From: Gammaproteobacteria bacterium | GTDB taxonomy: Bacteria > Pseudomonadota > Gammaproteobacteria > CAJXQU01 | Direction of reading: 5' to 3' | Length of the DNA: 64,000 nt | Assembly (NCBI GenBank): GCA_965238175.1 | Contig: CBDEGZ010000003.1 | Span: forward strand, 396,357-460,356 | Part shown: piece by piece, positions 3,648 through 56,023 of the stretch | Position numbering within the stretch: the stretch's first letter is position 1 | Layout: each line of letters opens with the position of its first letter | Translations under genes and position numbers: made by a program | The notes under the pieces: model-generated | Seen by the model: only the letters and a program-made list of their open reading frames with translations | What the model was told of the DNA's origin: nothing | Database searches by the model: none

Positions 3648-3813
3648 TCGGATCATAAAAACACTAAGTTTCAGGTAGGTAACCTTCATTTCTAGCTTTA
3701 TTTCCCTTTGGTTGAGACATTTCTTATTAACAGAGATTATTTTACAACATTTTGATAATCTAGATGTTATTTATTAATTCTTCAAATTTCATTAAAAATA
3801 CAATATCTCAGCC

Positions 3814-4806
3814 ATGCGAATATTGATCGTTAAAACTTCCTCTTTAGGTGATGTGGTGCATATGCTGCCAGCAATCACCGATGCTGATCGAGTATTTCCA
3901 GATCTCGTTGTAGATTGGATCGTTGAAAAATCTTTTCAAAGTGTTCCAGAATGGAATTCAGCTATTAATAAAATCATTCCCGTGACAATTCGGCGCTGGC
4001 GTAAAAAAGTGTTTTCTTATAGTACTCAATCAGAAATCACCTCGGTAAAGAAAAACATTCAATCGATGAAATATGATGCAGTCATCGATGCTCAGGGACT
4101 GATCAAAAGTTCAATAATCACTCGTTTATGTCGGGGTAGGCGATACGGATATAACTTTCGTAGCGCACGCGAACCTCTCGCTAGTTTGGCTTACGATGAA
4201 CGTTTTTTAGTTTCGAAAGAACTACATGCAATTGAAAGAAACCGACAACTTACTGCACTTTCACTTGGTTATTCATACCATGACTTACCTTTAAGTTATG
4301 GCTTAGAAAATATGATCAGCGAAATTTTTTCCCAATCAAAACATAGCGAGGAGCTTTTCCCAGATAGATATGTTGTTGGCCTGCACGGCACAAGCCGTCC
4401 AGATAAAGAATGGCCAGAAGAAAATTGGGTCCAGCTTTCACAAAAATTAGCTGATCAAAAAATCACTTTACTATTACCCTGGGGTAATCATCGCGAATAT
4501 GAACGTGCAGAAAGGATTGCTGAGAAAGGCAACACCGTCGTTCTACCAAAACTTGATCTAGATAGTCTTGCTGAAATTATTTGCAGATCAAAAGCAGTCG
4601 TTGGAATGGATACTGGATTGATGCATATTGCAGCCGCTCTAGGGAAACCAGGTGTGGCTATTTATCCTGCGACGAAGCCTGAATTAACCGGTGTAATTTC
4701 GGGAGCTGTTCATCAGCCTATTATTAATCTTGAAGGCTTAGTGTCGGCAGACATGGTTATGGAACGTTTAAAATTTTCTAATTGGGCAACAAATAGAAAG
4801 TTATAA
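3814..4806 (+). CDS. waaC: ADP-heptose--LPS heptosyltransferase I
   Basis: MRILIVKTSSLGDVVHMLPAITDA...DWIVEKSFQSVPEWNSAINKIIPVTIRRWRK matches the WaaC N-terminal consensus. Gene order waaF-waaC matches Pseudomonas. Confidence 0.85.
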   Translation: MRILIVKTSSLGDVVHMLPAITDADRVFPDLVVDWIVEKSFQSVPEWNSAINKIIPVTIRRWRKKVFSYSTQSEITSVKKNIQSMKYDAVIDAQGLIKSSIITRLCRGRRYGYNFRSAREPLASLAYDERFLVSKELHAIERNRQLTALSLGYSYHDLPLSYGLENMISEIFSQSKHSEELFPDRYVVGLHGTSRPDKEWPEENWVQLSQKLADQKITLLLPWGNHREYERAERIAEKGNTVVLPKLDLDSLAEIICRSKAVVGMDTGLMHIAAALGKPGVAIYPATKPELTGVISGAVHQPIINLEGLVSADMVMERLKFSNWATNRKL

Positions 4807-26033: not shown

Positions 26034-26890
26034 TGAATACCATTATCCACGTTGCCGAACTAAGAAGTCAGGTGAAAAAATGGCGCATGGCAGGCGAAAG
26101 TATTTGCTTAGTTCCGACGATGGGAAATCTGCATGAAGGTCATCTTGCATTGGTCGACCGGGCTAAACAGTTATCTGATCATGTCATCGCGTCGATTTTT
26201 GTTAATCCGATGCAATTTATTCAGGGCGAAGATTTTGCAACCTATCCACGAACAATGGAGCAGGATAGCCTCGCTTTATTTGAACGGGGTGTGAACACTC
26301 TATTCTCGCCCGAAGTTGATGAAGTTTATCCCGCTGGTTTAGAAAACCACACCGAAGTTTCAGTTCCGGCATTGGATGGTTTTCTCTGCGGCGCTTCAAG
26401 ACCAGGACATTTCAGCGGTGTTGCTACGGTCGTTTCAAAATTATTCAATCTAGTACAACCTGACACGGCCATCTTTGGTCAAAAAGATTATCAGCAACTG
26501 CTAGTGATCAAACACATGGTCAACGATTTATGCATGCCTATCGACATACAATCTTTACCAACCGTCAGAGAAGAAGATGGGCTCGCACTCAGCTCACGTA
26601 ATGGTTATTTAACTGAAAAAGATCGAAAAACAGCGCCAGCGATATATCAACAGCTGACCGAAATAACTGAGCAGATCAAAAATGGAAATATAAACTTTTC
26701 TGATCTGGAAAAAACCGGTAAAGAAAGTTTAAAACAACTGGGTTTTGAACCTGAATATTTAAGTATTCGTCGTCAAGATGATCTCAATATCGCAGATCAA
26801 AAACGCGATCAAAAACTCATTATTCTTGTCGCCGCACGACTAGGCACAACTCGTCTTATCGACAATATATTGGTATCTCGATCATTATGA
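26033..26890 (+). CDS. panC: Pantoate--beta-alanine ligase
   Basis: 285 aa with LVPTMGNLHEGHLALV (HIGH-type motif). Confidence 0.9.
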   Translation: MNTIIHVAELRSQVKKWRMAGESICLVPTMGNLHEGHLALVDRAKQLSDHVIASIFVNPMQFIQGEDFATYPRTMEQDSLALFERGVNTLFSPEVDEVYPAGLENHTEVSVPALDGFLCGASRPGHFSGVATVVSKLFNLVQPDTAIFGQKDYQQLLVIKHMVNDLCMPIDIQSLPTVREEDGLALSSRNGYLTEKDRKTAPAIYQQLTEITEQIKNGNINFSDLEKTGKESLKQLGFEPEYLSIRRQDDLNIADQKRDQKLIILVAARLGTTRLIDNILVSRSL

Positions 26891-27648
26891 CTATTGAAAA
26901 AGAAACCGCGAACAGGGCAAATACAGCAGCCGTTATTATCATCGGAAACGAAATTCTTTCTGGTCGCACACAGGATATTAACCTTTCTTATCTGGGAAAA
27001 CGTTTTGATCAATTAGGTATTAGTTTGGTCGAAGCGCGCATTGTTCGCGATGTTCCGGAAGAAATCATTGATGCGGTTAATCATCTAAGAAACGAGTATG
27101 AGTATGTATTCACTACTGGTGGAATCGGTCCTACACATGACGATATAACTACCGACTGTATCGCTCAAGCTTTTGGCGTTAACATTGAAATTAACCCTGA
27201 AGCAGTAAAATACGTTGCCCATGGTGATAAGCCAGATCAAATTTCGGACGCTCGAATGAAAATGGCAAAAATCCCAGTCGGTGCAACACTGGTGGATAAT
27301 CCTGTCAGCGGTGCACCAGGCTATCGACTTGAAAATGTCTATGTCTTCGCCGGCGTACCCAACATTATGCAAGCAATGTTTGAAGGAATGGCACATGAAC
27401 TTGTTGGTGGCGATCCTGTTTTGACCAAAACCGTCAGCACACACATGCGCGAAAGCCAGATAGCTGAAGGATTAGAAAAACTACAAAATGAATATCCAGA
27501 TATCAATATTGGAAGCTACCCGTTTTATAAAGAGCAACGCTTTGGTGTGAACATTGTCACTCGTGGCACAGATCAAAAGGAACTTGAAACGCTTGATCAA
27601 AAATTACGTGATTTGATTATTAAACTTGGACATCAACCAATCAAATAA
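26887..27648 (+). CDS. CinA-like N-terminal (MoCF-binding) domain protein
   Basis: 253 aa with AVIIIGNEILSGRTQDINLSYLGKRF...TTGGIGPTHDDIT, the competence/damage-inducible CinA N-domain / molybdopterin-binding fold. Confidence 0.65.
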   Translation: MTIEKETANRANTAAVIIIGNEILSGRTQDINLSYLGKRFDQLGISLVEARIVRDVPEEIIDAVNHLRNEYEYVFTTGGIGPTHDDITTDCIAQAFGVNIEINPEAVKYVAHGDKPDQISDARMKMAKIPVGATLVDNPVSGAPGYRLENVYVFAGVPNIMQAMFEGMAHELVGGDPVLTKTVSTHMRESQIAEGLEKLQNEYPDINIGSYPFYKEQRFGVNIVTRGTDQKELETLDQKLRDLIIKLGHQPIK

Positions 27649-27675
27649 TGGTAAAGAAGGCAAAAATGAGCTGGC

Positions 27676-29262
27676 TTATAAATCCTTAAATTTCAGATTA
27701 TATTTATTTAAGTAAACTCTTATTCGCTGTGAATCATTATTAGTTTCCTTTTTTGAACTACTTCGATTAAAAAGTTGCCTACCTGCATCAGCCATACTTT
27801 TGCTTTCTTTGCAGAGACGAATAACATGTGTAAGTTGTGCCTGTTCAAACAAATCTAGATTTTCATAAGCTCCACTTGTGAGCGTATTTTTAAGCAGCTC
27901 ATCATCACTATTGCTTTTAGAATCTTTGTAACCATTCCAATCCATCTGTAATCGCTGTATTTCATGATCAACAATACTCTCCGTAATTCGGCCACCCGTC
28001 GCTAAGGTTGCCATTCGGGTGATACTCGAATTCAGATCACGAAAGTTTGCTTTCCATTCAGCGAAAGAACTTAACGAGAACGCAAGGTATTTTGATTTTG
28101 CCGAGCTGTTAAAACCAATTTTATGATTCATATCCTGTGCATAGCGTTGAAGTTCATATTCTATATTTGGTTCAATATCTTCATAACGTTCTTTGAGTGA
28201 AGGCAGCTGGTAGTTCCACAAGTTGATTCTGGCTAGTAGATCTTCTCTGAATTTACCTTCTTCAACGAGTTGATAGAGATTGCGATTTGTTCCTGCGATG
28301 AGCTGAAAATCGCTGCTGACTTTTTGATCGGAACCAAACGGAGTAAACACTTTTTCTTCAATCGCTCGTAGTAACATGGCTTGTTCGTCTAAACCGAGCT
28401 CACCGATTTCATCCAAAAAAAGTAACCCGTGATTTGCTTCTAATAATAATCCATTTCGATTATTCACAGCTCCTGTATAGGCGCCCTTTATATGCCCAAA
28501 CAGCGTAGACATGGCATTATCACCACGCAATGTTGCGCAATTAACTTCGACTAATTGCCCTTTAAGCTGTGTGCGCTGCTGTTTTAATTCGTATATTTTT
28601 TTGGCTAAATGTGACTTGCCAACACCAGTTGGTCCCATCAATAAAATAGGCGCTTTTGATCGAATAGCAACTTGCTCAATTTCATCAATAAGTTGGTTAT
28701 ATCGTTTATTGCGGGTTTCGATTCCATCTTTAAGATAACTAATGTCTTGTTGGGCATCGCGGTTAAATCGAGAGGCAATTTGATCATAACGAGAAAGATC
28801 CAGATCAATAGTAAATAACTCACCATGCGCACCTTCTTTACTCGGTGCAGTCTGAATCAGTTTACCCGGGAAATAATTCGCTTCAGTCAGCAGATAAATA
28901 CAGATCTGTGCGACGTGCGTTCCTGTCGTGATATGAAAATGGTAGTTGTTATTTTCAGGATCAAAATTGTAAGCATGTGAAAAGTCGTGCAGTTGACTAT
29001 AGACCTGCTCAAAATCCCAGGGATCATCATAGTCTACAAGGTAAATAGAAATCTCAATATCCAGGCAAAGAGTGCTGATGTCTTTTAAAGTGAGGTCTAA
29101 TAATGCCTGATCTTGTTTGTGATAGATCAGGATCAATTCATCAACTGGAAACTCATGGTGCATCAACAATGACATGGTTGGACGCCAGCGTAACCAGCGC
29201 TTACTTCCAAGGCCTACATTATCAAGACGAGAGCCTAAAATCCCAATAACTATATTATTCAT
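27676..29262 (-). CDS. rtcR: Sigma-54-dependent transcriptional regulator RtcR
   Basis: 528 aa, co-linear with E. coli RtcR throughout. Shared segments include GSKRWLRWRPT, HITTGTHVAQICIYLL, GPTGVGKSHLA, EVNCATLRGDNAMSTLFGHIKGAYTGA, FREDLLARINLW and TRMATLATGGRIT. Confidence 0.9.
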   Translation of the reverse strand: MNNIVIGILGSRLDNVGLGSKRWLRWRPTMSLLMHHEFPVDELILIYHKQDQALLDLTLKDISTLCLDIEISIYLVDYDDPWDFEQVYSQLHDFSHAYNFDPENNNYHFHITTGTHVAQICIYLLTEANYFPGKLIQTAPSKEGAHGELFTIDLDLSRYDQIASRFNRDAQQDISYLKDGIETRNKRYNQLIDEIEQVAIRSKAPILLMGPTGVGKSHLAKKIYELKQQRTQLKGQLVEVNCATLRGDNAMSTLFGHIKGAYTGAVNNRNGLLLEANHGLLFLDEIGELGLDEQAMLLRAIEEKVFTPFGSDQKVSSDFQLIAGTNRNLYQLVEEGKFREDLLARINLWNYQLPSLKERYEDIEPNIEYELQRYAQDMNHKIGFNSSAKSKYLAFSLSSFAEWKANFRDLNSSITRMATLATGGRITESIVDHEIQRLQMDWNGYKDSKSNSDDELLKNTLTSGAYENLDLFEQAQLTHVIRLCKESKSMADAGRQLFNRSSSKKETNNDSQRIRVYLNKYNLKFKDL

Positions 29263-29401
29263 AAATATATAATTATATATTTATAGATAGATTTCAAGAA
29301 TATTATCTATCATCATATTTCTACTAAAACACATCATAAAAAAAATATTAATTTATATATTTCAATAACTTAAATATAAATTTCCAAGCTTGCAAAAAAG
29401 C

Positions 29402-29417
29402 TGGCAGGCCCATTGCA
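29402..29417 (+). promoter_or_regulatory. Sigma-54 (-24/-12) promoter for rtcB
   Basis: TGGCAG-gccca-TTGCA matches TGGCAC-N5-TTGCW. It lies about 70 nt upstream of the rtcB start, in the AT-rich rtcR/rtcB divergent region. Confidence 0.65.
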
Positions 29418-29484
29418 ATAATCTCTATCGAAAACAATTGAAACGAATACTAAATTACTAAACAAGAATAGAAGGAAGATCAAA

Positions 29485-30738
29485 ATGGACCAGCAAAACA
29501 ACATTAAAAACTCAAGCAACTATGACGTGTTATACGCAAATATTTCGAGAGTACCGGTTAAGTCATGGACCAAAGGTGTGCCGTTTGATCAGAATTCAAA
29601 GGATCAATTATTGAGCCTTTCGCAAATGCCTTTTATCCATAAATGGATTGCGGCAATGCCTGATGTTCATGTTGGGAAAGGGGCCACGATAGGAAGCGTC
29701 ATCCCAACATTTGGTGCGGTTATTCCTGCTGCCGTCGGTGTGGATTTAGGTTGCGGAATGATGGCAGCAAAAACGACTCTGACGGCCAATGACCTGCCTG
29801 ACGATTTAGCTGATATGCGTAGCGCAATTGAAAGTTTGGTTCCACATGGTCGCTCTGCTCGACGTCGTGGTGGTCGTGATAAAGGTAGCTGGGGAAATAT
29901 ACCAGATGATGTGGCTGAAGCATGGTCGCCACTAGCTGATGGATTTGATCGCCTGGTTGAAAAGCATCCGTTTTTGAAGAATACCAATAACGTCGCGCAT
30001 TTAGGAACATTGGGAACAGGTAATCACTTTGTAGAGATCTGCCTGGACGAAAATGAGGATGTCTGGGTGATGTTACATAGCGGATCTCGTGGTGTGGGTA
30101 ATGCGATTGGAAGACATTTTATCGAAAAAGCACAACGAGATATGGAACGCTGGTTTATTCATTTGCCTGATCGAGATCTGGCTTATATACCAGAGGGCAG
30201 CGAGCAGTTTGGTCACTATATTTCTGCAGTGTCATGGGCACAAGATTTTGCCCGCATTAATCGTGAAATAATGATGCAGCGAACATTGCAAGCCATGACT
30301 GATGTTTTACCAATAGCATTTACGGCTGATGTAGAAGCGGTGAATTGTCACCATAACTACATCCGTAAAGAGAACCACTACGACGAAAACGTGTGGGTCA
30401 CTCGAAAAGGTGCGGTGAGTGCTCGCAAAGGCGAAATGGGCATTATCCCAGGAAGTATGGGTGCGAAATCATTCATCGTTCGAGGGCTTGGAAATGAAGA
30501 AAGCTTTTGTAGTTGTAGCCATGGAGCAGGACGTGTGATGTCACGTACTCAAGCAAAAAAAGTAGTTTCATTAGCAGAACACGTTCAAGCCACGAAAGGT
30601 GTGGAATGCCGTAAAGATGCGAGTGTAATTGATGAAACTCCAGCAGCGTATAAACCGATTGAACAAGTCATGGAAGCACAAAATGATCTTGTGGAAATAG
30701 TACATACCTTAAAGCAGGTCGTGTGCGTAAAAGGATAA
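29485..30738 (+). CDS. rtcB: RNA-splicing ligase RtcB (3'-phosphate/5'-hydroxyl RNA ligase)
   Basis: 417 aa, near-colinear with E. coli RtcB. Shared segments include MPDVHVGKGATIGSVIPT, GTLGTGNHFVEICLDE, HSGSRGVGNAIG, NCHHNY and SFCSCSHGAGRVMSRT. Confidence 0.92.
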   Translation: MDQQNNIKNSSNYDVLYANISRVPVKSWTKGVPFDQNSKDQLLSLSQMPFIHKWIAAMPDVHVGKGATIGSVIPTFGAVIPAAVGVDLGCGMMAAKTTLTANDLPDDLADMRSAIESLVPHGRSARRRGGRDKGSWGNIPDDVAEAWSPLADGFDRLVEKHPFLKNTNNVAHLGTLGTGNHFVEICLDENEDVWVMLHSGSRGVGNAIGRHFIEKAQRDMERWFIHLPDRDLAYIPEGSEQFGHYISAVSWAQDFARINREIMMQRTLQAMTDVLPIAFTADVEAVNCHHNYIRKENHYDENVWVTRKGAVSARKGEMGIIPGSMGAKSFIVRGLGNEESFCSCSHGAGRVMSRTQAKKVVSLAEHVQATKGVECRKDASVIDETPAAYKPIEQVMEAQNDLVEIVHTLKQVVCVKG

Positions 30739-30753
30739 GCGCGGAAAGCAGAT

Positions 30754-30778
30754 GCTGGAATGGGCCAGCACCTTTTAG
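30754..30778 (+). terminator. Putative terminator after rtcB
   Basis: GCTGG-aatggg-CCAGC followed by ACCTTTT. The U-tract is short. Confidence 0.35.
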
Positions 30779-30930
30779 GAAAGAAGAATTCTGTATATTT
30801 CTGTTAAAAAAGTAGTTAGGAAAATACAACAAAGAATCTCAATCTTTACAAACTTGCGGAGCTGGTTTTAACCAGCCTGACACCAGGTTCTTTGAGCCAA
30901 TGTGTATCGGTTTGTGCGGGTTAGATAACT

Positions 30931-30996
30931 ATCGTTATAGCTAAATGGTAAAGCGCTGGAAACAGTCATGTGATGGTTCGACTCCATCTAACGATG
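30931..30996 (+). ncRNA. Truncated tRNA-like element (66 nt): intact acceptor, D-like and T arms, no normal anticodon arm
   Basis: The 7-bp acceptor (ATCGTTA/TAACGAT) is perfect and is followed by U8A9. D-like GCT-AAATGGTAA-AGC. T-arm GATGG-TTCGACT-CCATC. Only 16 nt separate the D arm from the T stem, where about 22 are expected. No CCA is present. Confidence 0.5.
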
Positions 30997-30998
30997 CT

Positions 30999-31072
30999 AT
31001 CACTATAGCTCATATGGTTAGAGCAGTTGACTCAAAATCAATTTGTAGCCGGTTCGAATCCGGCTAGTGAAC
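30999..31072 (+). tRNA. Non-canonical tRNA-like gene (74 nt), Met/Ile-family-like body with anticodon loop CTCAAAA (CAA) and an A1·A72 mismatch
   Basis: D-arm AGCTCATATGGTTAGAGCA resembles E. coli elongator tRNA-Met (AGCTCAGTTGGTTAGAGCA). The anticodon arm GTTGA-CTCAAAA-TCAAT gives anticodon CAA with a 5-nt variable loop, so it is not a class-II tRNA-Leu. T-arm GCCGG-TTCGAAT-CCGGC. The acceptor ATCACTA/TAGTGAA has a terminal A·A mismatch. It starts 2 nt after the preceding tRNA-like element and encodes no CCA. Confidence 0.5.
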
Positions 31073-31159
31073 CGCCGAAAGGCACCAACTTACACATTAA
31101 AGTGTATTGAAATAATGTCTGAAAGGACAATGTAAAACGCTCCAGACAGCAGATCATTT

Positions 31160-31234
31160 ATGAAAAATATTCTAGTTGTTGAAGATTTCACCTTCTTCGG
31201 AAGAGGCAGTTCAGAGATAACAAGAGTGGCCTGA
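31160..31234 (+). pseudogene. Truncated response-regulator receiver-domain stub
   Basis: The 24-codon ORF MKNILVVEDFTFFGRGSSEITRVA* has a typical receiver-domain N-terminus (MKxILVVED) that terminates after about 20 aa. Confidence 0.3.
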
Positions 31235-31418
31235 ATAGGTCTGAATAGACTTGAAGCGTCAACATGCAAACGACCTTTGTGGTGGGTTTGTAACTTGCGA
31301 ATTTATGAGACTTTTCAATAGAGATAATTCTGTTGTCATCGCCATAATCATCCCAGGATACATAAACCAACGAGCTAGTTTGTATGTGGAGCGTTTACAT
31401 TTTTTAAGGAGAATTAGT

Positions 31419-32582
31419 ATGTTTTTTATGAAAAAAATTATCGTTCCTGAAACGCATCATGCTTTGTTATTCAAAGACGAGCCGTTCAGTAATGTACTTA
31501 TGCCAGGTGTTTATAATTTGCTCGACTTAAGAAATCGAATTAGATTTTCTCTAGTTGATATTTCTAACACCTTAGAAAATGGTGTAAATGATCAGGCGAT
31601 GAAAGTTTTAAAACTACATCCTGAAAAAATGAACGCACACGTACAAATCTGGGAAACCGGAGAACATGAAGTAGGACTTGCTTATCAAGACAATATCTTG
31701 AAAGAAATTAAAGCACCTGCCGAACGTGGCGCTTATTGGACAGGTTTTGGTGAAGTAACGATCAAAAAAATCGATATTTCTGAAATCTTCAAGCTGGATA
31801 AAACACTCGCAAGAATGGTGTTAGCCGCTAAAGACTCCTTGCTTAAAAACTCAGCAATTAGCGCAGTGACTACGGCTACTATTCCAGAACGTCATTTTGG
31901 TTTTTTGGAAGTTGGTGGTGAACAGCACTCTAAGTTAGACGCAGGTATCCATGTTTGGTGGAAATTCAATCGTAACCTAAAGGTTAAACAGATTGATTTA
32001 AGGCTACAAAACATGGAAGTTAATGGACAAGAAATTTTGACCAAAGACCGTGTTGGTTTGCGTGTTAATTTATCTGCTACCTGGCAAGTCAGTGATGCAA
32101 AACGTGTGTCTGCAGAATTAGCAGATCATACTGATTATTTGTACCGTGAATTGCAGTTAGCATTGCGTACGATTGTTTCCACTCAAACATTGGATGAGTT
32201 GCTTGTCGATAAAAATAAACTGAATCAAAAAATTCAAGAGATTGTTGTCAGTAAAGCCTCTCAATACGGCATTGAGTTAAAAACGGTTGGTGCAAGAGAT
32301 ATTGTTTTACCCGGTGAAATGAAAACGATTTTGAGCCAAGTTGTTGAAGCCGAAAAAATGGCTGAAGCAAATTTGATCAAACGTAGAGAAGAAACCCAGG
32401 CGACAAGATCATTGCACAACACTGCAAAAGTGATGGAAGGAAACCCAACCCTTTTACGTTTGAAAGAACTGGAAGTGCTAGAAAAAATCACATCACAGAT
32501 CAGTACGCTAAATGTTTATGGTGGCTTGGATGGCGTTATGAACGACATGGTTCGTATCCCATCGACAGCTGCTAAGACATGA
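31419..32582 (+). CDS. SPFH/band-7 (stomatin/flotillin-like) domain protein
   Basis: The start is placed at 31419 (MFFMKK...), where a strong RBS AAGGAGAA lies 6 nt upstream. An SPFH-like core is followed by a coiled-coil-rich tail (…LSQVVEAEKMAEANLIKRREETQATR…). The listed six-frame ORF begins at 31251. Confidence 0.65.
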   Translation: MFFMKKIIVPETHHALLFKDEPFSNVLMPGVYNLLDLRNRIRFSLVDISNTLENGVNDQAMKVLKLHPEKMNAHVQIWETGEHEVGLAYQDNILKEIKAPAERGAYWTGFGEVTIKKIDISEIFKLDKTLARMVLAAKDSLLKNSAISAVTTATIPERHFGFLEVGGEQHSKLDAGIHVWWKFNRNLKVKQIDLRLQNMEVNGQEILTKDRVGLRVNLSATWQVSDAKRVSAELADHTDYLYRELQLALRTIVSTQTLDELLVDKNKLNQKIQEIVVSKASQYGIELKTVGARDIVLPGEMKTILSQVVEAEKMAEANLIKRREETQATRSLHNTAKVMEGNPTLLRLKELEVLEKITSQISTLNVYGGLDGVMNDMVRIPSTAAKT

Positions 32583-32672
32583 TGTTTTTTTAGAATGGAG
32601 TTAAGCACAAAACTTAGCTCCATTTCTCAACTCTCTTTTAATCAAATCTATAGAAACCAAAATTAAGAAGGT

Positions 32673-33104
32673 TTGAGTATGAAAAGTAGCAAACAAAGAA
32701 GATTGGAAATTAAAGAAAAAAGGAGAAAAAAAGCTGCAAAGTTAAAAATTAGTACTTTTGAGGTTTGTGATCCTCTTCCTAAAGGGGCTGTCTTATCAAG
32801 CTCAATGGAACTCCGCCATAATAATATTTATTGTGTTTTACCACTTTTTTATGTCGATAAAGCTTATAGTTGTCAGGACTGTGGTTCAAAAGAATTATGG
32901 ACAGCTAAACAACAAAAATGGTGGTACGAAATTGCAAAAGGTAATATTTATTCTAGCGCAGTAAAATGTTTGAAATGCCGAAAAAAAATAAAACCAGAAA
33001 AAGAGACTCAAAAAAACACATGGAAAAAATGGCACTTAAAGAACCCCATCCAAATGAGGCTTTTTTTAAGAAACGTTAATTATTTCAGGAAAAAATCAAG
33101 ATAA
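32673..33104 (+). CDS. Lysine-rich zinc-ribbon protein
   Basis: 143 aa with a basic N-terminal segment, CQDCGSKE...KCLKCRKK (two CxxC pairs) and a Lys-rich C-terminus. Confidence 0.4.
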   Translation: MSMKSSKQRRLEIKEKRRKKAAKLKISTFEVCDPLPKGAVLSSSMELRHNNIYCVLPLFYVDKAYSCQDCGSKELWTAKQQKWWYEIAKGNIYSSAVKCLKCRKKIKPEKETQKNTWKKWHLKNPIQMRLFLRNVNYFRKKSR

Positions 33105-33178
33105 TATCGGTTGAAAATTACCAGAAGAATATACCGAAACGACTATATCATGAAAATTAGTTGTAGAAGTTTAGACCC

Positions 33179-34376
33179 AATCTGACACATCACTAAATCA
33201 AGCGGAGCGTAGCGACGCTTGATTTAGTGAGAGTTACCCGCTTTGATGTAACTGCAACGTAAACATCAAAACACAAAGAGGTAACTCTCATGATTCATAC
33301 TAATGACAAAGTTATAAAACATAAAGTTGGTCTACTCAATCTCGCTGAAGAACTCGGCAATGTCTCAAAAGCCTGCAAGATGATGGGTTTGTCCAGAGAT
33401 ACATTTTATCGCTACAAAGAAGCGGCTGATGAAGGCGGTGTAGAAGCCTTGTTTGATCGTAATCGGCGTACCCCAAATCTTAAAAACAGAATCGACCCGG
33501 CTATTGAAACCGTTGTGCTCGAGTATGCACTGGAAGAGCCCGCACATGGTCAAACGCGCACCAGTAACGAGCTGCGCAAACGGGGAACATTTGTCTCACC
33601 CAGTGGCGTTCGTTGTATCTGGCTTCGTCATGGTCTTGCTTGCTTTAAAGATCGCCTGAAGGCATTGTCTGATAAGGTAGCTGGTGAAGGCTTGATCCTC
33701 ACTGAGTCTCAAGTCGCGGCGATGGAACGCAAAAAAGACGACGATGAGGCTTGTGGCGAGATAGAAACGGCACACCCTGGTTATCTTGGCTCGCAAGATA
33801 CTTACTATGTCGGTACTTTCAAAGGCATTGGTCGGGTTTATCAACAAACGTTTGTTGATACTTACAGCAAGGTCGCTCACGCGAAACTGTACCCGACTAA
33901 AACACCGATTACGGCAGCTGACATGCTCAATGACCGCGTCCTCCCATTCTACGAACAACAACGTTTGCCTATGTTGCGCATTTTGACAGATAGAGGGACG
34001 GAGTATTGTGGGCGAGCTGACCAGCATGATTATCAGCTTTATATGGCGTTGAACAATATCGAACACACCAAAACCAAGGTCAAATCACCTCAGACGAATG
34101 GTATTTGTGAGCGATTCCATAAGACGATCCTCAATGAGTTTTATCAAGTCGCTTTGCGTAAGAAAATTTACCAATCGATTGATGAACTGCAACTCGACCT
34201 TGACGAATGGTTGCTCAAATACAATACTCAACGAACTCACCAAGGCAAAATGTGCTGCGGGAGGACGCCGATGGAAACACTCATCGACGGACAAGCTATC
34301 TGGAAGGAAAAGTTTGTGAATTAAACTTAACCTGACAGTCGGTTACTGATAATTGGGTAACTGTCAGATCAAATCT
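33179..34376 (+). mobile_element. IS481-family insertion sequence
   Basis: It contains a 344-aa transposase bounded by imperfect inverted termini that share ATCTGACA (left 33179-33186) and TGTCAGAT (right, about 34369-34376). A hairpin CACTAAATCAAGCG/CGCTTGATTTAGTG lies inside the left end. Confidence 0.55.
33290..34324 (+). CDS. IS481-family DDE transposase (integrase core domain)
   Basis: It has an N-terminal HTH (LSRDTFYRYKEA) and an rve-type integrase core (DTYYVGTFKGIGRVYQQTFVDTYSKVAHAKLY...TDRGTEY...KSPQTNGICERFHKT). Confidence 0.85.
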   Translation: MIHTNDKVIKHKVGLLNLAEELGNVSKACKMMGLSRDTFYRYKEAADEGGVEALFDRNRRTPNLKNRIDPAIETVVLEYALEEPAHGQTRTSNELRKRGTFVSPSGVRCIWLRHGLACFKDRLKALSDKVAGEGLILTESQVAAMERKKDDDEACGEIETAHPGYLGSQDTYYVGTFKGIGRVYQQTFVDTYSKVAHAKLYPTKTPITAADMLNDRVLPFYEQQRLPMLRILTDRGTEYCGRADQHDYQLYMALNNIEHTKTKVKSPQTNGICERFHKTILNEFYQVALRKKIYQSIDELQLDLDEWLLKYNTQRTHQGKMCCGRTPMETLIDGQAIWKEKFVN

Positions 34377-34672
34377 GAATTTCTACAAATTAGTACCATC
34401 AGTACCCACACTCTGTGTATATACCTTGTGAGCTTGGTGCAACACCCGAAGCAACCAACGTTGGAGCCAATATCTGCTTCTTGCTCTATGAGCTCGCAAG
34501 GCCTGTCTTCTAAACCAGCAAACTTTTTTACCTGTACAAACGTTTCTTCAGCGATTTCCTCAACAGAATTTATTGCAGCAGGAAAAAACGCTTTGGTGGG
34601 CAATACTAAAACTATTTCTTTGAAAAAAGCATCACCACCAAAATGTTTCAACTTGAAACTGAAAATCCTCAT
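34364..34672 (-). pseudogene. Possibly truncated ORF upstream of gloA, abutting the IS481 end
   Basis: The 102-aa ORF has its 3' end exactly at the IS right terminus, and its C-terminal 30 aa look non-native (…RVWVLMVLICRNSDLI). Confidence 0.3.
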
Positions 34673-34758
34673 CCGACAAGATTCGCTTCGATTTAAAAAT
34701 ACCTAACATAAATCCGAATATCTATTCGTGGCACAACTCTTAAATTGCAAGTTTTGAA

Positions 34759-35139
34759 TTAATCACCAAGCAATTCAACCATATAACCATCCGGATCTTT
34801 TACAAAAGCAATAACCGTTGTTCCACCCTTCATTGGTCCCGCTTCACGAACAACCTCACCGCCTCGTGCTTTGATTTCTTCTGCGGTTTTATAAACATCA
34901 TCCACACCTATTGCGATATGGCCATAAGCATTTCCTAAATCATAACTTTCTGTTCCCCAATTATGGGTCAATTCTAATACTGTCGACTCCGATTCATCAC
35001 CATAACCAACAAATGCGAGCGTAAACTCACCTTCGGGGTAATCATTTTTACGTAATAATTTCATACCCAGAACACCCGTATAAAACTCCAAAGAGCGATT
35101 TAAACTGCCCACTCTTAACATCGTATGTAGCATTCTCAT
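34759..35139 (-). CDS. gloA: Lactoylglutathione lyase (glyoxalase I)
   Basis: 126 aa with [29 protein letters not shown]... Confidence 0.85.
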
Positions 35140-35203
35140 CAGCGCGATCCTGTTTTTTATTTTTAGCCTCTTTTCTAGAGGCTGTTGTGTTGATCTTTTT
35201 TGA

Positions 35204-36220
35204 TCAAATATTTTTCTTTACTTTTTTTACGGTATAAATAAAAATCGTCATGCTTAATAATAACAGCGCAGCCACGCCATTATGCGCAACAGCAACATGT
35301 AGTGGTAACCCCATCGCGATATTTGCGATACCTAAGGTCACTTGTAATAACAGGAAAAAACCCATTAATAACGCCGCTTTTTGGATTGAACTGTGCTCAT
35401 TTCTCATTGCTAGCAGAAACAAAATCGATAGCGTGAAAAAAGTGGCTATGGCACCTATTCGATGCATCATATGAATTGCAGTTCGTGCATCGGTTTTTAA
35501 AACACCGAATTCATAATCGATTCCTAAACCTCTCCAAAGCGTAAAACCTTCCTTAAAATCCATTGCTGGCCACCAGTAGTTTTGGCATGTTGGAAAATCT
35601 GGACAAATCAAAGCTGCGTAATTACTGCTTGTCCAACCGCCTAAAAAAATTTGTATAAAAAGAACAATAAATCCAAATATAGCTAAGGGTAAAAGTACAC
35701 CTGTTTTACTTTCCGGTGTTGTAATTATTTTTCTCTCACGTGTTGCTATAACCACCCACGTCAGCAAAACCATTGTCGTCATCCCGCCAAGCAGATGTCC
35801 GGTAACAACTAATGGTTTCAATAGCAGGGTTACTGTCCACATTCCAAGTAGCCCCTGAAAAATGACAAGACCAACTAACACAATTGGAATAATAACCGGC
35901 TGATCAGGATCTCGCCGATTACGCCAGGCTAAAAAAGCCATGATCAAAATCAAAAAACCCAATGTGCTAGCCAAATATCGATGGATCATTTCTTTCCAAG
36001 CTTTTTCTGGCTCTAACTCTCTATGTAACTCATTACTTTCTTCATCTCTAAAACTATCATCTATGTGTTCGCTGGTTTCCGGTACCAGCAGATTTCCATA
36101 ACAACCTGGCCAATCCGGGCAACCAAGACCGGCATCAGACAATCGGACATAAGCGCCCAACACTATGACACAAAGCACGAGTATTAAAGTAAGCCGAGCA
36201 AGCGAGTTAAACGTTTTCAT
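35204..36220 (-). CDS. ctaA: Heme A synthase (CtaA/COX15 family)
   Basis: 338 aa, polytopic, with a [12 protein letters not shown] loop-Cys motif and conserved His residues in the TM helices. Confidence 0.7.
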
Positions 36221-36927
36221 AAAATTTGATCTTTGGTTTTTTCTAAAGTATTAGTGATTTTTTCTGGTATGTACTGATCTTGTTTCATTTGTTCAATTAT
36301 TTTTTGATCTATATGGGGAACAAATTGAACCGGAATGCCTAAGTGTTTTTCTAATGTATCCAAAGTTTCTTCTAATTTTTCATAATCTGCATCTATTTGA
36401 TTTGCCACACAAGCAATCAAACCCAGACCTTTTTCTTGTATTGCCTGGGCAGTTAACAAAGCATGATTTATACAGCCAAGCCGTAAACCAACAACCAGAA
36501 TCACCGGAAGCCCAAGTACAACAGCTAGATCAGACATATACCGATCATCACTGATTGGAACTTGCCAACCACCAACTCCTTCCACCAAAACAAAATCAGT
36601 GCTATCCGAGATAACAGAAAATTTTTCAAGAATAGTATCAAGATCAATTTTCTGATCAAGATCTTTAGCAGCAAAATGTGGAGATACAGATGGCTGAAAC
36701 GCATACGGGTTGATCAAACCATAATCTAGCTCAAGATTTGACTGCTGCATGATCAAATCCGCATCTTCATTTCTCAAACCTTGGCTGGTTTTATAACAAC
36801 CACTTGCGATAGGTTTCATACCTACAGTATTCAAACCAGAACTGGACAATAACTTGATCAAACTCGCCGTGATGATTGTTTTACCAACACCCGTATCCGT
36901 ACCCGTAATAAAATAGCCCTTAGTCAT
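36217..36927 (-). CDS. bioD: Dethiobiotin synthetase
   Basis: The P-loop FITGTDTGVGKT and a position at the end of the bio operon support the call. Confidence 0.85.
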   Translation of the reverse strand: MTKGYFITGTDTGVGKTIITASLIKLLSSSGLNTVGMKPIASGCYKTSQGLRNEDADLIMQQSNLELDYGLINPYAFQPSVSPHFAAKDLDQKIDLDTILEKFSVISDSTDFVLVEGVGGWQVPISDDRYMSDLAVVLGLPVILVVGLRLGCINHALLTAQAIQEKGLGLIACVANQIDADYEKLEETLDTLEKHLGIPVQFVPHIDQKIIEQMKQDQYIPEKITNTLEKTKDQIL

Positions 36928-54372: not shown

Positions 54373-56023
54373 AGGTTAATAATTCGCCATCTGCAAAGAC
54401 CTGATATGTTTGAGAGTCAACTTCAATTTCAGGTTGGTAGTCATTCAGTACCATATCGGTTTTGGTGATATTTCGACAATTTTTTACCACACCCACCATG
54501 CTCTTTAATCCAAGTTGTCCTGCGAGATCATCTTGTTGCGCCGCCTGTGAAACAAAGGTCATTTTTGTTGCATAGCGGGCGCCACCAAACGTTGCAAACA
54601 TAGGCCGATAATGTACGGGTTGAGGTGTTGGAATAGAGGCATTTGGATCACCCATGGGTGCTGCGGCAATCATACCGCCCTTGATAATCAAATTTGGCTT
54701 TGTTGCAAAAAAGGCAGGATCCCATAACACAAGATCAGCCAACTTACCGACCTCAACGGATCCCACCTCATGAGATATGCCATGTGTTATTGCCGGATTT
54801 ATAGTGTATTTAGCGATATAGCGTTTAGCTCTAAAATTATCAGCTTCGCGATCATTATCTAAAGCGCCGCGTTGCACTTTCATTTTATGGGCGGTTTGCC
54901 ATGTTCGAGTGATCACTTCACCAACGCGGCCCATAGCTTGTGAGTCCGATGCAATCATCGAAAAGGCGCCTAAATCATGCAAAATATCCTCAGCAGCAAT
55001 GGTTTCTCGTCGGATCCGAGACTCTGCAAACGCCACATCTTCAGCAATATTGGGATCAAGGTGATGGCAGACCATCAACATATCTAGATGTTCGTCAACG
55101 GTATTAATAGTGTAAGGCCTGGTTGGGTTAGTCGACGACGGTAAAACAAAAGGCTCACCACAGGCTTTGATAATATCGGGGGCGTGGCCGCCGCCAGCAC
55201 CTTCGGTATGATAGGTGTGAATTGTTCTCCCTTTCATAGCTGCTAAAGTATGCTCAACAAAACCAGATTCGTTTAAGGTGTCAGTATGAATTGCGACTTG
55301 CACATCCATTTTGTCTGCCACAGATAAACAAGTATCGATCGATGCCGGCGTTGTGCCCCAATCTTCATGTAATTTCAGGCCGATGGCACCTGCACGCACC
55401 TGTTCTTCAAGTGGTGCCCGGTTGCTGGCATTACCTTTAGCCAGATAACCAATATTGATCGGTAAATCTTCCGCCGCCTGTAGCATGCGATGCATATTCC
55501 AAATGCCTGGTGTACAAGTTGTGGCATTGGTGCCGGTTGCGGGTCCTGTGCCGCCGCCCAACATTGTTGTCACACCGGACATTAAAGCTTCTTCAATCTG
55601 TTGAGGACAAATAAAATGAATATGTGAATCGATTCCACCAGCCGTTAAAATCTGACCTTCGCCAGCAATAACTTCGGTTCCAGGTCCAACTAAGATAGTC
55701 ACGCCCGGCTGGATATCAGGGTTGCCTGCCTTACCAATACCGACAATACGACCATGCTTAATACCGATATCGGCTTTAATAATACCCCAGTGATCCAGTA
55801 TCAATGCATTTGTGATAACGAGATCAACAACGTCAGCATCATTACCTTGGCATTGTCCCATACCATCCCGAATTACTTTGCCGCCACCAAATTTGACTTC
55901 ATCACCATAGACAGTGTGATCCTTTTCGATTTCTATCCAGAGCTCAGTATCACCCAAACGAACACGGTCACCGGTGGTTGGGCCATACATTTCCATATAG
56001 GCTTGTCTGTTAATGGCCGTCAT
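54323..56023 (-). CDS. ureC: Urease alpha subunit
   Basis: 566 aa with MVCHHLD and the active-site His/Lys carbamate region, the urease alpha consensus. Confidence 0.97.

Follow-up and report, generated by a model that had tools for sequence, protein, structure and literature searches.

Two tRNA-like elements between rtcB and a Band-7 gene belong to a structurally conserved family and are probably tRNA mimics

A stretch of 64,000 nucleotides (the window) from a contig of a gammaproteobacterium (CBDEGZ010000003.1) contains two transfer RNA (tRNA)-like elements, called E1 and E2, which lie one directly after the other in a non-coding spacer of 680 nt (30739-31418) between rtcB, the gene for an RNA ligase, and a gene for a protein of the SPFH/Band-7 type. 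All coordinates are positions within the window. The original prediction, which was made from the letters of this DNA alone, held that E1 and E2 fit tRNA mimics or decayed tRNA genes better than housekeeping tRNAs, and the first of these is borne out by the comparison with related loci. In more than 100 of them, one or two such elements are likewise found 5′ of Band-7, and the context, the conservation and the covariation of the elements are established. The features of the locus are as follows (MFE, minimum free energy; R1, a model specific for this family of elements).

27676-29262, minus strand: rtcR, divergent to the operon, for an activator of the sigma-54 enhancer-binding type that carries a CARF-type RtcR domain
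29402-29417, plus strand: sigma-54-type promoter-like site TGGCAG-N5-TTGCA, found by pattern search, 68 nt 5′ of the rtcB ATG
29485-30738, plus strand: rtcB RNA ligase gene (Pfam RtcB, 427 bits)
30848-30915, plus strand: three-way-junction RNA motif, directly 5′ of the tRNA-like pair
30931-30996, plus strand: E1, tRNA-like module without an anticodon arm (Rfam tRNA, model R1, MFE fold, covariation in 5 orthologues)
30955-30966, plus strand: mini-arm of E1, a 4-bp helix (GCUG/CAGU) with a GAAA tetraloop in the position of the anticodon arm
30999-31072, plus strand: E2, full class-I tRNA-like module (Rfam tRNA, ARAGORN Leu(caa), model R1)
31074-31128, plus strand: three small hairpins (GCC-GAAA-GGC, ACAC-AUUAAA-GUGU, GUCU-GAAA-GGAC), 3′ of E2
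31135-31396, plus strand: large structured 3′ RNA domain of about 260 nt, with a closing helix of AAACGCUCC (31135-31143) and GGAGCGUUU (31388-31396)
31419-32582, plus strand: SPFH/Band-7 ("slipin") gene, 387 aa (Pfam Band_7)
32673-33104, plus strand: gene for a zf_Tbcl (treble-clef zinc) protein, the final gene of the cassette (Pfam PF13451, 49 bits)
33290-34324: gene for an IS481-type DDE transposase (Pfam scan), the sole mobile gene among the neighbours

E1 has a perfect acceptor stem of 7 bp (ATCGTTA/TAACGAT) followed by U8 and A9, a D-stem of 3 bp (GCT/AGC) around the loop AAATGGTAA (a GGUAA-type loop), and a T-arm with a 5-bp stem (GATGG-TTCGACT-CCATC); its discriminator is G, followed by CT (tail G-CUA), and CCA is not encoded. 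The anticodon arm and the variable loop are replaced by 17 nt between the D arm and the T arm (about 16 had been counted in the original prediction), and these include the 4-bp mini-arm with its GAAA tetraloop. When E1 is folded alone, the MFE structure and the centroid structure are both a four-helix cloverleaf that includes the mini-arm, and neither has a standard 5-bp anticodon stem. In the alignment of E1 to the Rfam tRNA model, the columns of the anticodon stem are deleted or mispaired.

E2 begins 2 nt past the end of E1. It has a D-arm stem GCUC/GAGC, an anticodon stem-loop GUUGA-CUCAAAA-UCAAU, in which CAA occupies 31033-31035, a variable loop of 5 nt (UUGUA), and a T-arm GCCGG-UUCGAAU-CCGGC. 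The loop CUCAAAA has U33 and A37, and an anticodon arm with a 5-bp stem and a 7-nt loop is thus present in E2 and not in E1; the long arm of class-II bacterial tRNA-Leu is not present. The first acceptor position is the mismatch A30999·A31071 (A1·A72), and the discriminator C leads into the tail C-CGC without CCA. All the sequence features that had been listed for 30931-31072 are indeed there, among them CAA on a class-I body with a 5-nt variable loop, the A1·A72 mismatch and the lack of an encoded CCA in both elements. Both elements score above the gathering score (29) of the Rfam tRNA model, E1 with 48.4 bits and E2 with 57.9 bits (E-values for the whole window of 2.7e-07 and 6.9e-10), and R1 gives 46.1 bits for E1 and 79.4 bits for E2. 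ARAGORN, another of the checks that had been suggested, reports E2 only, as tRNA-Leu(caa). E2 is also about 83% identical over 59 nt to a tRNA-Met of T4-like phages; a phage origin was considered and rejected, as this similarity is generic and the phage collection contained no Band-7 homologue.

Related loci came from genomes (80 loci, from a scan with a Band-7 alignment, with protein identities of 41-80%), from metagenomes (67 loci) and from exact look-ups (14 loci). The genome loci belong to Thiotrichaceae, Methylococcales, Cellvibrionaceae, Kangiellaceae and other lineages, and the closest relatives are Thiotrichaceae, Cocleimonas and Methylococcaceae metagenome-assembled genomes. Nearly all loci have, by ARAGORN or R1, one or two abutting tRNA-like elements (gap 0-2 nt) at a distance of 250-570 nt 5′ of Band-7. 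Of the 80 genome loci, 50 carry rtcB in the same orientation 5′ of Band-7, and 47 carry rtcR; in 24, rtcB is not within the fetched locus and the RNA elements are still upstream of Band-7. The position of the elements between rtcB and Band-7 is kept in relatives regardless of the insertion sequence.

The tRNA-like elements are one sequence family: every one has the D arm UAGCUCA..GGUAGAGC together with the T loop GGUUCGANUCC. Model R1 was built from 93 tRNA-like elements, and its covariation was assessed on the 150 best matches, which include some canonical tRNAs of flanking arrays: in these 150, standard pairs fill 95.9% of cells (68% in shuffles), and double (compensatory) changes occur in 20 of the 21 pairs. 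Across 122 unique elements 5′ of Band-7, there are 3-6 pair types in each of three stems (acceptor, anticodon and T), and only 52% of the elements have a canonical pair at 1:72 (A·A 31, C·A 12). The A1·A72 "mismatch" is the norm of the family. In some distant loci (L059, L063, L065 and L072, also L055, L062, L077 and L047), Band-7 and a tRNA-like element lie inside arrays of 6-24 apparently canonical tRNAs; rtcB is sometimes within such an array as well, and the arrangement resembles the stress-induced L-array tRNA operons of cyanobacteria.

Where both copies are of full length, they differ in a regular manner. In the upstream copy, G1 is opposite C72 and N73-CCA is encoded, its final A doubling as base 1 of the downstream copy; the "anticodon" loop of the upstream copy is short and aberrant (not 7 nt in 28 of 35). 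Downstream copies, of the E2 type, have A, C or U at position 1 opposite A72 and no CCA, and their 3′ tail, A/C-C, leads into a hairpin. The E2-type loop is of 7 nt in 49 of 57, and these 49 loops hold 15 different triplets, with an entropy of 1.99 bits at position 34, U33 in only 36 and a pyrimidine at position 37 in 12. ARAGORN makes 41 different anticodon or aberrant loop calls in 146 unique elements, of which CAU is the commonest; many have A34 (AAA, AUU, AGA, ACA and others), and UUA (a stop) and "anticodons" of 2 or 4 nt also occur, as do loops of 3-9 nt. In the closest relatives, the E2 loop is CUCAUAA (L001, L002, L006, L007), CUAUUAA (L004), CUGUUAA (L083) or CCGUUAA (L159), and it is of 8 nt in L005 and of 17 nt in L003. 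Since the loop differs even among these, the CAA of the window appears to be one more variant of a non-decoding loop and not the anticodon of a class-I tRNA-Leu.

E1 varies in another way. In the sub-clade of the window (with L001/L154, L006, L083 and L160), its architecture is the same, and the five mini-arms differ in sequence (GCUG-GAAA-CAGU in the window, then CCCC-GCAA-GGGG, CCCA-GCAA-UGGG, ACUC-GAAA-GGGU and GCCC-CAAA-GGGU): all cells (100%) are paired, and both sides have changed in three of the four pairs. By this comparison, E1 is a conserved variant and not a product of decay. In other close relatives (L159, L004, L005, L007 and L156-L158), a hairpin of 6-7 bp and then GGAAA stand in place of the D arm, the mini hairpin is kept or lost, and N-CCA is the end of the element in most. 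In three loci (L003:4482-4556, L152:2497-2572 and L161:975-1053), E1 is circularly permuted, the order being T arm and 3′ acceptor strand, a loop of 4-6 nt, then 5′ acceptor strand and D arm, so that a loop closes off the acceptor end and the two ends together build the mini-arm; the MFE structure is a four-way junction, as expected, and once the permutation is undone the sequence is colinear with E1 of the window. Finally, L002 and L155 have an elbow-only module, made of GG(U/G)AA, a tetraloop hairpin and a T arm, and such a module is also found 3′ of a single full element in loci of the Kangiellaceae type.

The conserved unit is thus the tRNA body with its elbow; it does not extend to the anticodon, and some copies lack a free acceptor end. 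It follows from the permuted and elbow-only variants that a free, chargeable 3′ end is not required. Comparison of the loci indicates that selection keeps the acceptor/T-arm stack, the "elbow" of D-loop GG and T-loop, and the stems, while the anticodon end varies (E2) or is a tetraloop stub (E1). The elements belong to a conserved family under structural selection, which is tied to Band-7, and usually to rtcB and rtcR, and they are not constrained as decoders.

The tRNA-like pair is flanked by further structured RNA. The three-way junction of about 70 nt on its 5′ side consists of P1 (ACAAACU/GGUUUGU), the joining segment GCGG, the P2 hairpin, CUGAC, the P3 hairpin and GUAUC. RNAalifold on 49 loci gives compensatory changes in 19 of its 25 pairs, and in the alignment of R2, a model of this junction, 91.5% of cells are paired (67% in shuffles), with double changes in 21 of the 25 pairs. 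Of 88 sources, 84 have one R2 match, which lies on the same strand just 5′ of the tRNA-like elements, and the sole extra match in 872 kb is a weak second one in L031; the R2 match in the window is at 30837-30924 (61.3 bits), and the junction of the window has an MFE z of -3.17. On the 3′ side, the three small hairpins are kept with covarying stems in loci of the window clade, and their equivalents in other clades are UACCC..GGUA and GCCC-GNRA-GGGC. The 3′ domain, which ends 10 nt before the ribosome-binding site of Band-7, has 52 pairs, 39 of them compensatory, by RNAalifold on 17 loci of the window clade; 25 more distant loci of the Methylobacter/Thiothrix type have the same architecture (41 pairs, 32 compensatory), with an equivalent CCUCC/GGAGG closing helix. 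The z values are -3.29 for the MFE of the 3′ domain in the window and -3.56 for the fold of the whole spacer. A permissive search of 30730-31430 against Rfam 15 (E<=5) gave the two tRNA matches, a sub-threshold YrlA match and noise only, and it left the three-way junction and the 3′ domain unmatched. The three-way junction is a candidate for a new RNA family. Hammerhead, twister and pistol ribozymes produce ends of the type used by RtcB; the junction was compared by eye with these three and rejected as one of them, as their conserved cores are absent and Rfam gives no match.

The decisive context, which is missing from the original prediction, is that of rtcR and rtcB immediately upstream of the elements. 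The rtcR product matches Pfam RtcR (234 bits) and Sigma54_activat, and it exceeds the cut-off of the NCBIfam equivalog RNA_repair_RtcR (752.8 bits, cut-off 650); with RtcR next to rtcB, the locus has in this respect the arrangement of an RtcR-regulated rtc operon. The site TGGCAG-N5-TTGCA has one mismatch to the sigma-54 pattern GG-N10-GC, and as the count of such sites in the window is within chance, its position is the sole argument for it. From the rtcB stop (30738) to E1 there are 192 nt, and from the end of E2 to the start of Band-7 (31419) there are 346 nt. No terminator-like site was found between rtcB and Band-7, and therefore the segment from rtcB to Band-7, including the spacer, can be co-transcribed from the putative RtcR-dependent sigma-54 promoter. 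An RtcA domain is absent from the neighbouring open reading frames (ORFs), i.e., the cyclase gene rtcA of E. coli rtcBA is not found there, and Band-7 and zf_Tbcl follow rtcB. No TROVE/Ro domain is found among the ten ORFs from 26887 to 36927.

Band-7 homologues are 387 aa long, their alignment to the long ORF begins at its M57, and an AGGAG ribosome-binding site precedes 31419; therefore, Band-7 starts at 31419, and what lies upstream of it is structured non-coding RNA. The SPFH gene and the IS481 element that the original prediction had seen in the downstream flank are real, and its gene stubs are not: they are this structured RNA and, at 32673-33104, a conserved zf_Tbcl gene, which is also downstream of Band-7 in L002, L006 and L155. 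The gene downstream of Band-7 varies by locus, being zf_Tbcl, RlaP (an RNA-ligase-associated nucleotidyltransferase), DUF5677 or CHAT. RlaP (PF10127) is in this position in L152 (4313-5116), L153, L160 and L161, which are of the window clade, where the window itself has zf_Tbcl; RlaP has been described as adding one or two nucleotides to RNA 3′ ends (2025 preprint, PMC12776372). Just 5′ of the IS481-family transposase gene, at 33190-33230, there is a perfect 15-nt inverted repeat, TCACTAAATCAAGCG / CGCTTGATTTAGTGA, with an 11-nt spacer; the inverted repeats near this insertion sequence were uninformative on integration. At 55588-55873 (plus strand), the window has a match to the Helicobacter 5′ ureB small RNA (sRNA) of Rfam (95.4 bits, gathering score 40), which presumably reflects conserved urease gene sequence and no real sRNA.

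For the Band-7 protein, 3475 homologues were found at E<=1e-5 among the 8000 candidates scored. Its AlphaFold model (m15f6bbc7f408; predicted local distance difference test, pLDDT, 76) has beta-rich N-terminal domains (1-125), the SPFH domain and a helix of about 60 residues. A membrane-anchor-like N-terminal helix is not predicted in the model, which suggests that the protein may be a soluble, cage-forming SPFH protein. Foldseek finds stomatin, HflK/C, prohibitin, flotillin and erlin, which are cage- or ring-forming SPFH proteins (E 1e-15 to 1e-9), and the longest alignments are with major vault protein (MVP; about 445 columns, template-modelling (TM) score of 0.41-0.42 on the query), spanning the N-terminal beta domains, the SPFH shoulder and the cap helix of the Band-7 model.

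A distant cassette with a slipin gene is also found in E. coli, where 1629 of 5426 complete genomes match at least 80% of a query that runs over the slipin gene and the spacer which lies 3′ of yjbD. In the records inspected (L162, STEC639, 3690-4003, and L163, WAT), a nucleotidyltransferase gene follows slipin, and in WAT a zeta-toxin-family gene adjoins. Upstream of slipin in this cassette, there are a sigma-54-like site, TGGCACGCTTCTCGCA, and a lone T-arm-like hairpin, UGGGUUCGAUUCCCA. A full match to R1 or R2 was not found in the E. coli slipin cassette, which has no annotated RNA, and it says nothing directly about the window locus.

The best account of these observations is provided by a prediction of Burroughs and Aravind from 2016, not experimentally validated, of a non-coding RNA (ncRNA) which resembles tRNA and is encoded where RtcB adjoins a Band-7 protein, the b7a-tRNA (bioRxiv 10.1101/312249, Wolin laboratory). 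As far as it can be tested on the DNA, the elements of the window fit the description given there in every feature: they adjoin Band-7, their neighbourhood is an RNA-repair one centred on RtcB, and they resemble tRNA by their Rfam scores. E1 and E2 would thus be tRNA mimics of the b7a-tRNA class that work with RtcB and a cage-forming SPFH protein in a response to tRNA damage, a reading to which we give a probability of about 0.8 and for which the mechanism is inferred. Damage to tRNA, for example by anticodon nucleases, would lead RtcR to turn the operon on; RtcR of Salmonella responds to tRNA fragments with cyclic-phosphate ends (PMC7790460). Together with RtcB and the SPFH oligomer, the tRNA-shaped RNAs would then serve as a cofactor, decoy or scaffold of tRNA-like form, much as YrlA does with Ro60. 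They may do so as E1 and E2 alone or as part of one multi-domain RNA that also takes in the three-way junction and the 3′ domain. Wherever their acceptor ends are free, E1 and E2 may be cut out by RNase P and by trimming at the 3′ end. The encoded CCA on many E1 copies argues for excised small RNAs, and the permuted E1 argues for an embedded domain of one multi-domain RNA.

Several points weigh against this reading. The identity with b7a-tRNA, as compared with the definition of its own authors, rests on a secondary source (10.1101/312249). The signals for processing differ among the loci: N73-CCA is encoded by many of the full-length E1 copies of other clades, while E1 of the window is without CCA and some relatives are permuted, and one mechanism may not fit all. 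(The real tRNA genes of gammaproteobacteria mostly encode CCA.) The canonical 7-nt loop in 49 of 57 E2-type copies, with CAU as the commonest triplet, makes an interaction that depends on the anticodon loop, or decoding in some species, possible. The 3′ domain adjoins the ribosome-binding site of Band-7 and could be a cis-regulatory leader instead of part of a trans-acting RNA.

This last point leads to the explanation that the RNA punctuates or regulates the operon in cis: the elements would be signals for processing by RNase P and RNase Z and for stability between the rtcB and Band-7 mRNAs, the flanks would be a translation leader of Band-7, and there would be no trans-acting RNA. The elements lie within an operon whose two genes are not separated by a terminator; the closing helix of the 3′ domain, 10 nt before the ribosome-binding site, pairs GGAG/GGAGG with a CCUCC-like sequence; and in many loci the CCA of E1 ends exactly at the start of E2, as in dimeric tRNA precursors. 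However, punctuation needs no more than a minimal RNase P substrate, and it leaves two modules, a three-way junction and elbow-only modules without an acceptor stem unexplained; RNase P cannot cut a permuted E1, as its acceptor end is closed; and the 24 genome loci without rtcB in the fetched locus keep the RNA elements 5′ of Band-7. We regard it as unlikely. Less likely still is that the elements are genuine decoding tRNAs supplied with the repair operon, E2 being a nuclease-resistant or back-up reader of UUG (a Met-type body mutated to CAA) and E1 an armless tRNA. The cloverleaf of E2 is intact, with a 7-nt loop, U33 and A37; some related loci have Band-7 inside arrays of 6-24 normal-looking tRNAs, and arrays co-regulated with rtcB exist whose tRNAs are used under stress (PMC8421152). 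Against decoding, the anticodon is not conserved even in the closest relatives (CAU, GUU, AUU), A34, stop triplets and loops of other than 7 nt are common, and U33 and a purine at 37 are often lost. E1 is entirely without an anticodon, and E2 combines C73, a 1:72 mismatch and the absence of CCA with the lack of a long variable arm. Bacterial leucyl-tRNA synthetase uses A73, and methionyl-tRNA synthetase needs CAU; as E2 has C73, no long variable arm and no CAU, neither enzyme should charge it.

Two explanations raised by the original prediction fare worst. It had offered decayed tRNA genes and a tRNA-type integration hotspot, of which the SPFH gene and IS481 would be cargo or debris, and the non-canonical features of the elements and an IS481-family transposase gene 2.2 kb downstream would be in keeping with this. 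Decay is contradicted by the structural selection across more than 100 loci, seen as compensatory covariation in all stems (double changes in 20 of 21 pairs), including the mini-arm of E1, and by the fixed synteny with Band-7 in many gammaproteobacterial lineages. As to integration, the position is fixed in the relatives, a second, attachment site-like copy of either 3′ end is absent from the 64 kb (<=3 mismatches), and an integrase is absent from the neighbouring ORFs; recent copies of one mobile element are contradicted by Band-7 protein identities of 41-80%. On the evidence of the compared sequences, pseudogenes and integration are refuted, and we consider them hardly credible. The other explanation is that the elements belong to the YrlA/Y-RNA family and tether the Ro60 (Rsr) protein. 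YrlA also has a tRNA-like domain and also occurs in RtcR-controlled rtcB operons (PMC7790460; 10.1101/312249), and the Rfam YrlA model matches weakly across E1-E2 (22.6 bits, E 0.028). This score is far under the gathering score of 69, none of the ten neighbouring ORFs is a TROVE/Ro gene, and the partner gene is Band-7. The comparison with Y RNAs is thus apt as an analogy, because they also sit in RtcR/RtcB operons, while actual membership in the YrlA family is exceedingly improbable.

A bolder version of the trans-acting reading is that the whole 680-nt spacer is one modular ncRNA, made up of the junction, both tRNA-shaped domains, the hairpins and the 3′ domain. A cytoplasmic SPFH protein that forms cages and resembles MVP would join this RNA to make a "vault-like" ribonucleoprotein of bacteria. 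We put this forward tentatively, as a possibility that is more doubtful than not. Such a particle might collect damaged tRNAs for RtcB, or its fast-evolving anticodon-like loop might serve as bait for anticodon nucleases. If so, the existence of permuted and elbow-only forms would mean that selection acts on the shape of elbow and acceptor within a larger RNA and not on an excised tRNA, and the three-way junction and the 3′ domain would be new RNA families.

The b7a-tRNA has so far been purely computational, and the mechanism by which bacterial RtcB finds its substrates is still unclear. The locus and its relatives provide a testable anatomy of the parts of tRNA that appear to be selected (acceptor/T-arm stack, elbow) and of one that appears not to be (anticodon), in a mimic which tolerates circular permutation and with which two further covarying RNA domains always travel. 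The role of tRNA-like RNAs in RNA-repair operons can thereby be addressed by experiments on defined RNAs and a defined SPFH partner. For annotation, the elements should not be named tRNA-Leu, tRNA-Met and so on, as the identities given by ARAGORN number dozens and are spurious.

In comparison with known systems, the b7a-tRNA is the closest: it shares the Band-7/SPFH and RtcB neighbours, the strong resemblance to tRNA and the proposed role as a cofactor of RNA repair. In the literature searched, the term b7a-tRNA and the combination of RtcB, Band-7 and a tRNA-like RNA occur only in the preprint 10.1101/312249, and Rfam 15 has no b7a-tRNA family, nor are the tandem E1-E2, the mini-arm, the permuted and elbow-only variants, the hypervariable loop or the flanking domains represented there. 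As far as the accessible literature and Rfam show, the covarying mini-arm, the permutation, the elbow-only modules, the hypervariable loop and the two RNA domains thus appear to be undescribed.

YrlA, from the Salmonella rsr-yrlBA-rtcBA operon (RF02553), likewise mimics tRNA by an acceptor/T-arm stack and an elbow without decoding, is encoded in an RtcR/sigma-54-controlled operon with rtcB, and has an RNA-binding "scaffold" protein as its partner; in the window, the partner is SPFH/Band-7 and not Ro60, no Ro-binding stem was found, and there are two modules and other domains. In Anabaena, translational stress jointly derepresses rtcB, a slipin gene and an operon that carries a tRNA array (PMC10272220; PMC8421152), and the stress-induced arrays have been proposed to be a sponge for tRNA-cleaving toxins (PMC8421152). 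These L-arrays (the Anabaena trn operon) share with the window extra tRNA-shaped RNAs that go with RtcB under translational stress and a slipin in the regulon (PMC10272220), and some of the Band-7 loci compared here lie inside such arrays. The members of L-arrays, however, are mostly canonical, chargeable tRNAs with many anticodons, whereas the window has two non-canonical mimics of one family.

Permuted tRNA genes are known in Cyanidioschyzon merolae and other algae, where the precursor is circularised and re-opened to a normal tRNA. E1 of L003, L152 and L161 also has its 3′ half before its 5′ half, but in these loci a loop closes the acceptor end, and it is in the mini-arm that the ends are open and run on into the flanking RNA; E1 of the window is unpermuted. 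The vault, with MVP, vault RNA and the TROVE protein TEP1, is eukaryotic, and its RNA is not tRNA-shaped; the TM score for the window protein is only 0.41-0.42, and the bacterial side of the comparison is predicted from a model. Yet in both cases, a cage protein with an SPFH-type "shoulder" and a cap helix would go together with small structured ncRNAs, and the locus also bears on the proposed bacterial ancestry of ribonucleoproteins of the Ro/Y-RNA and vault types.

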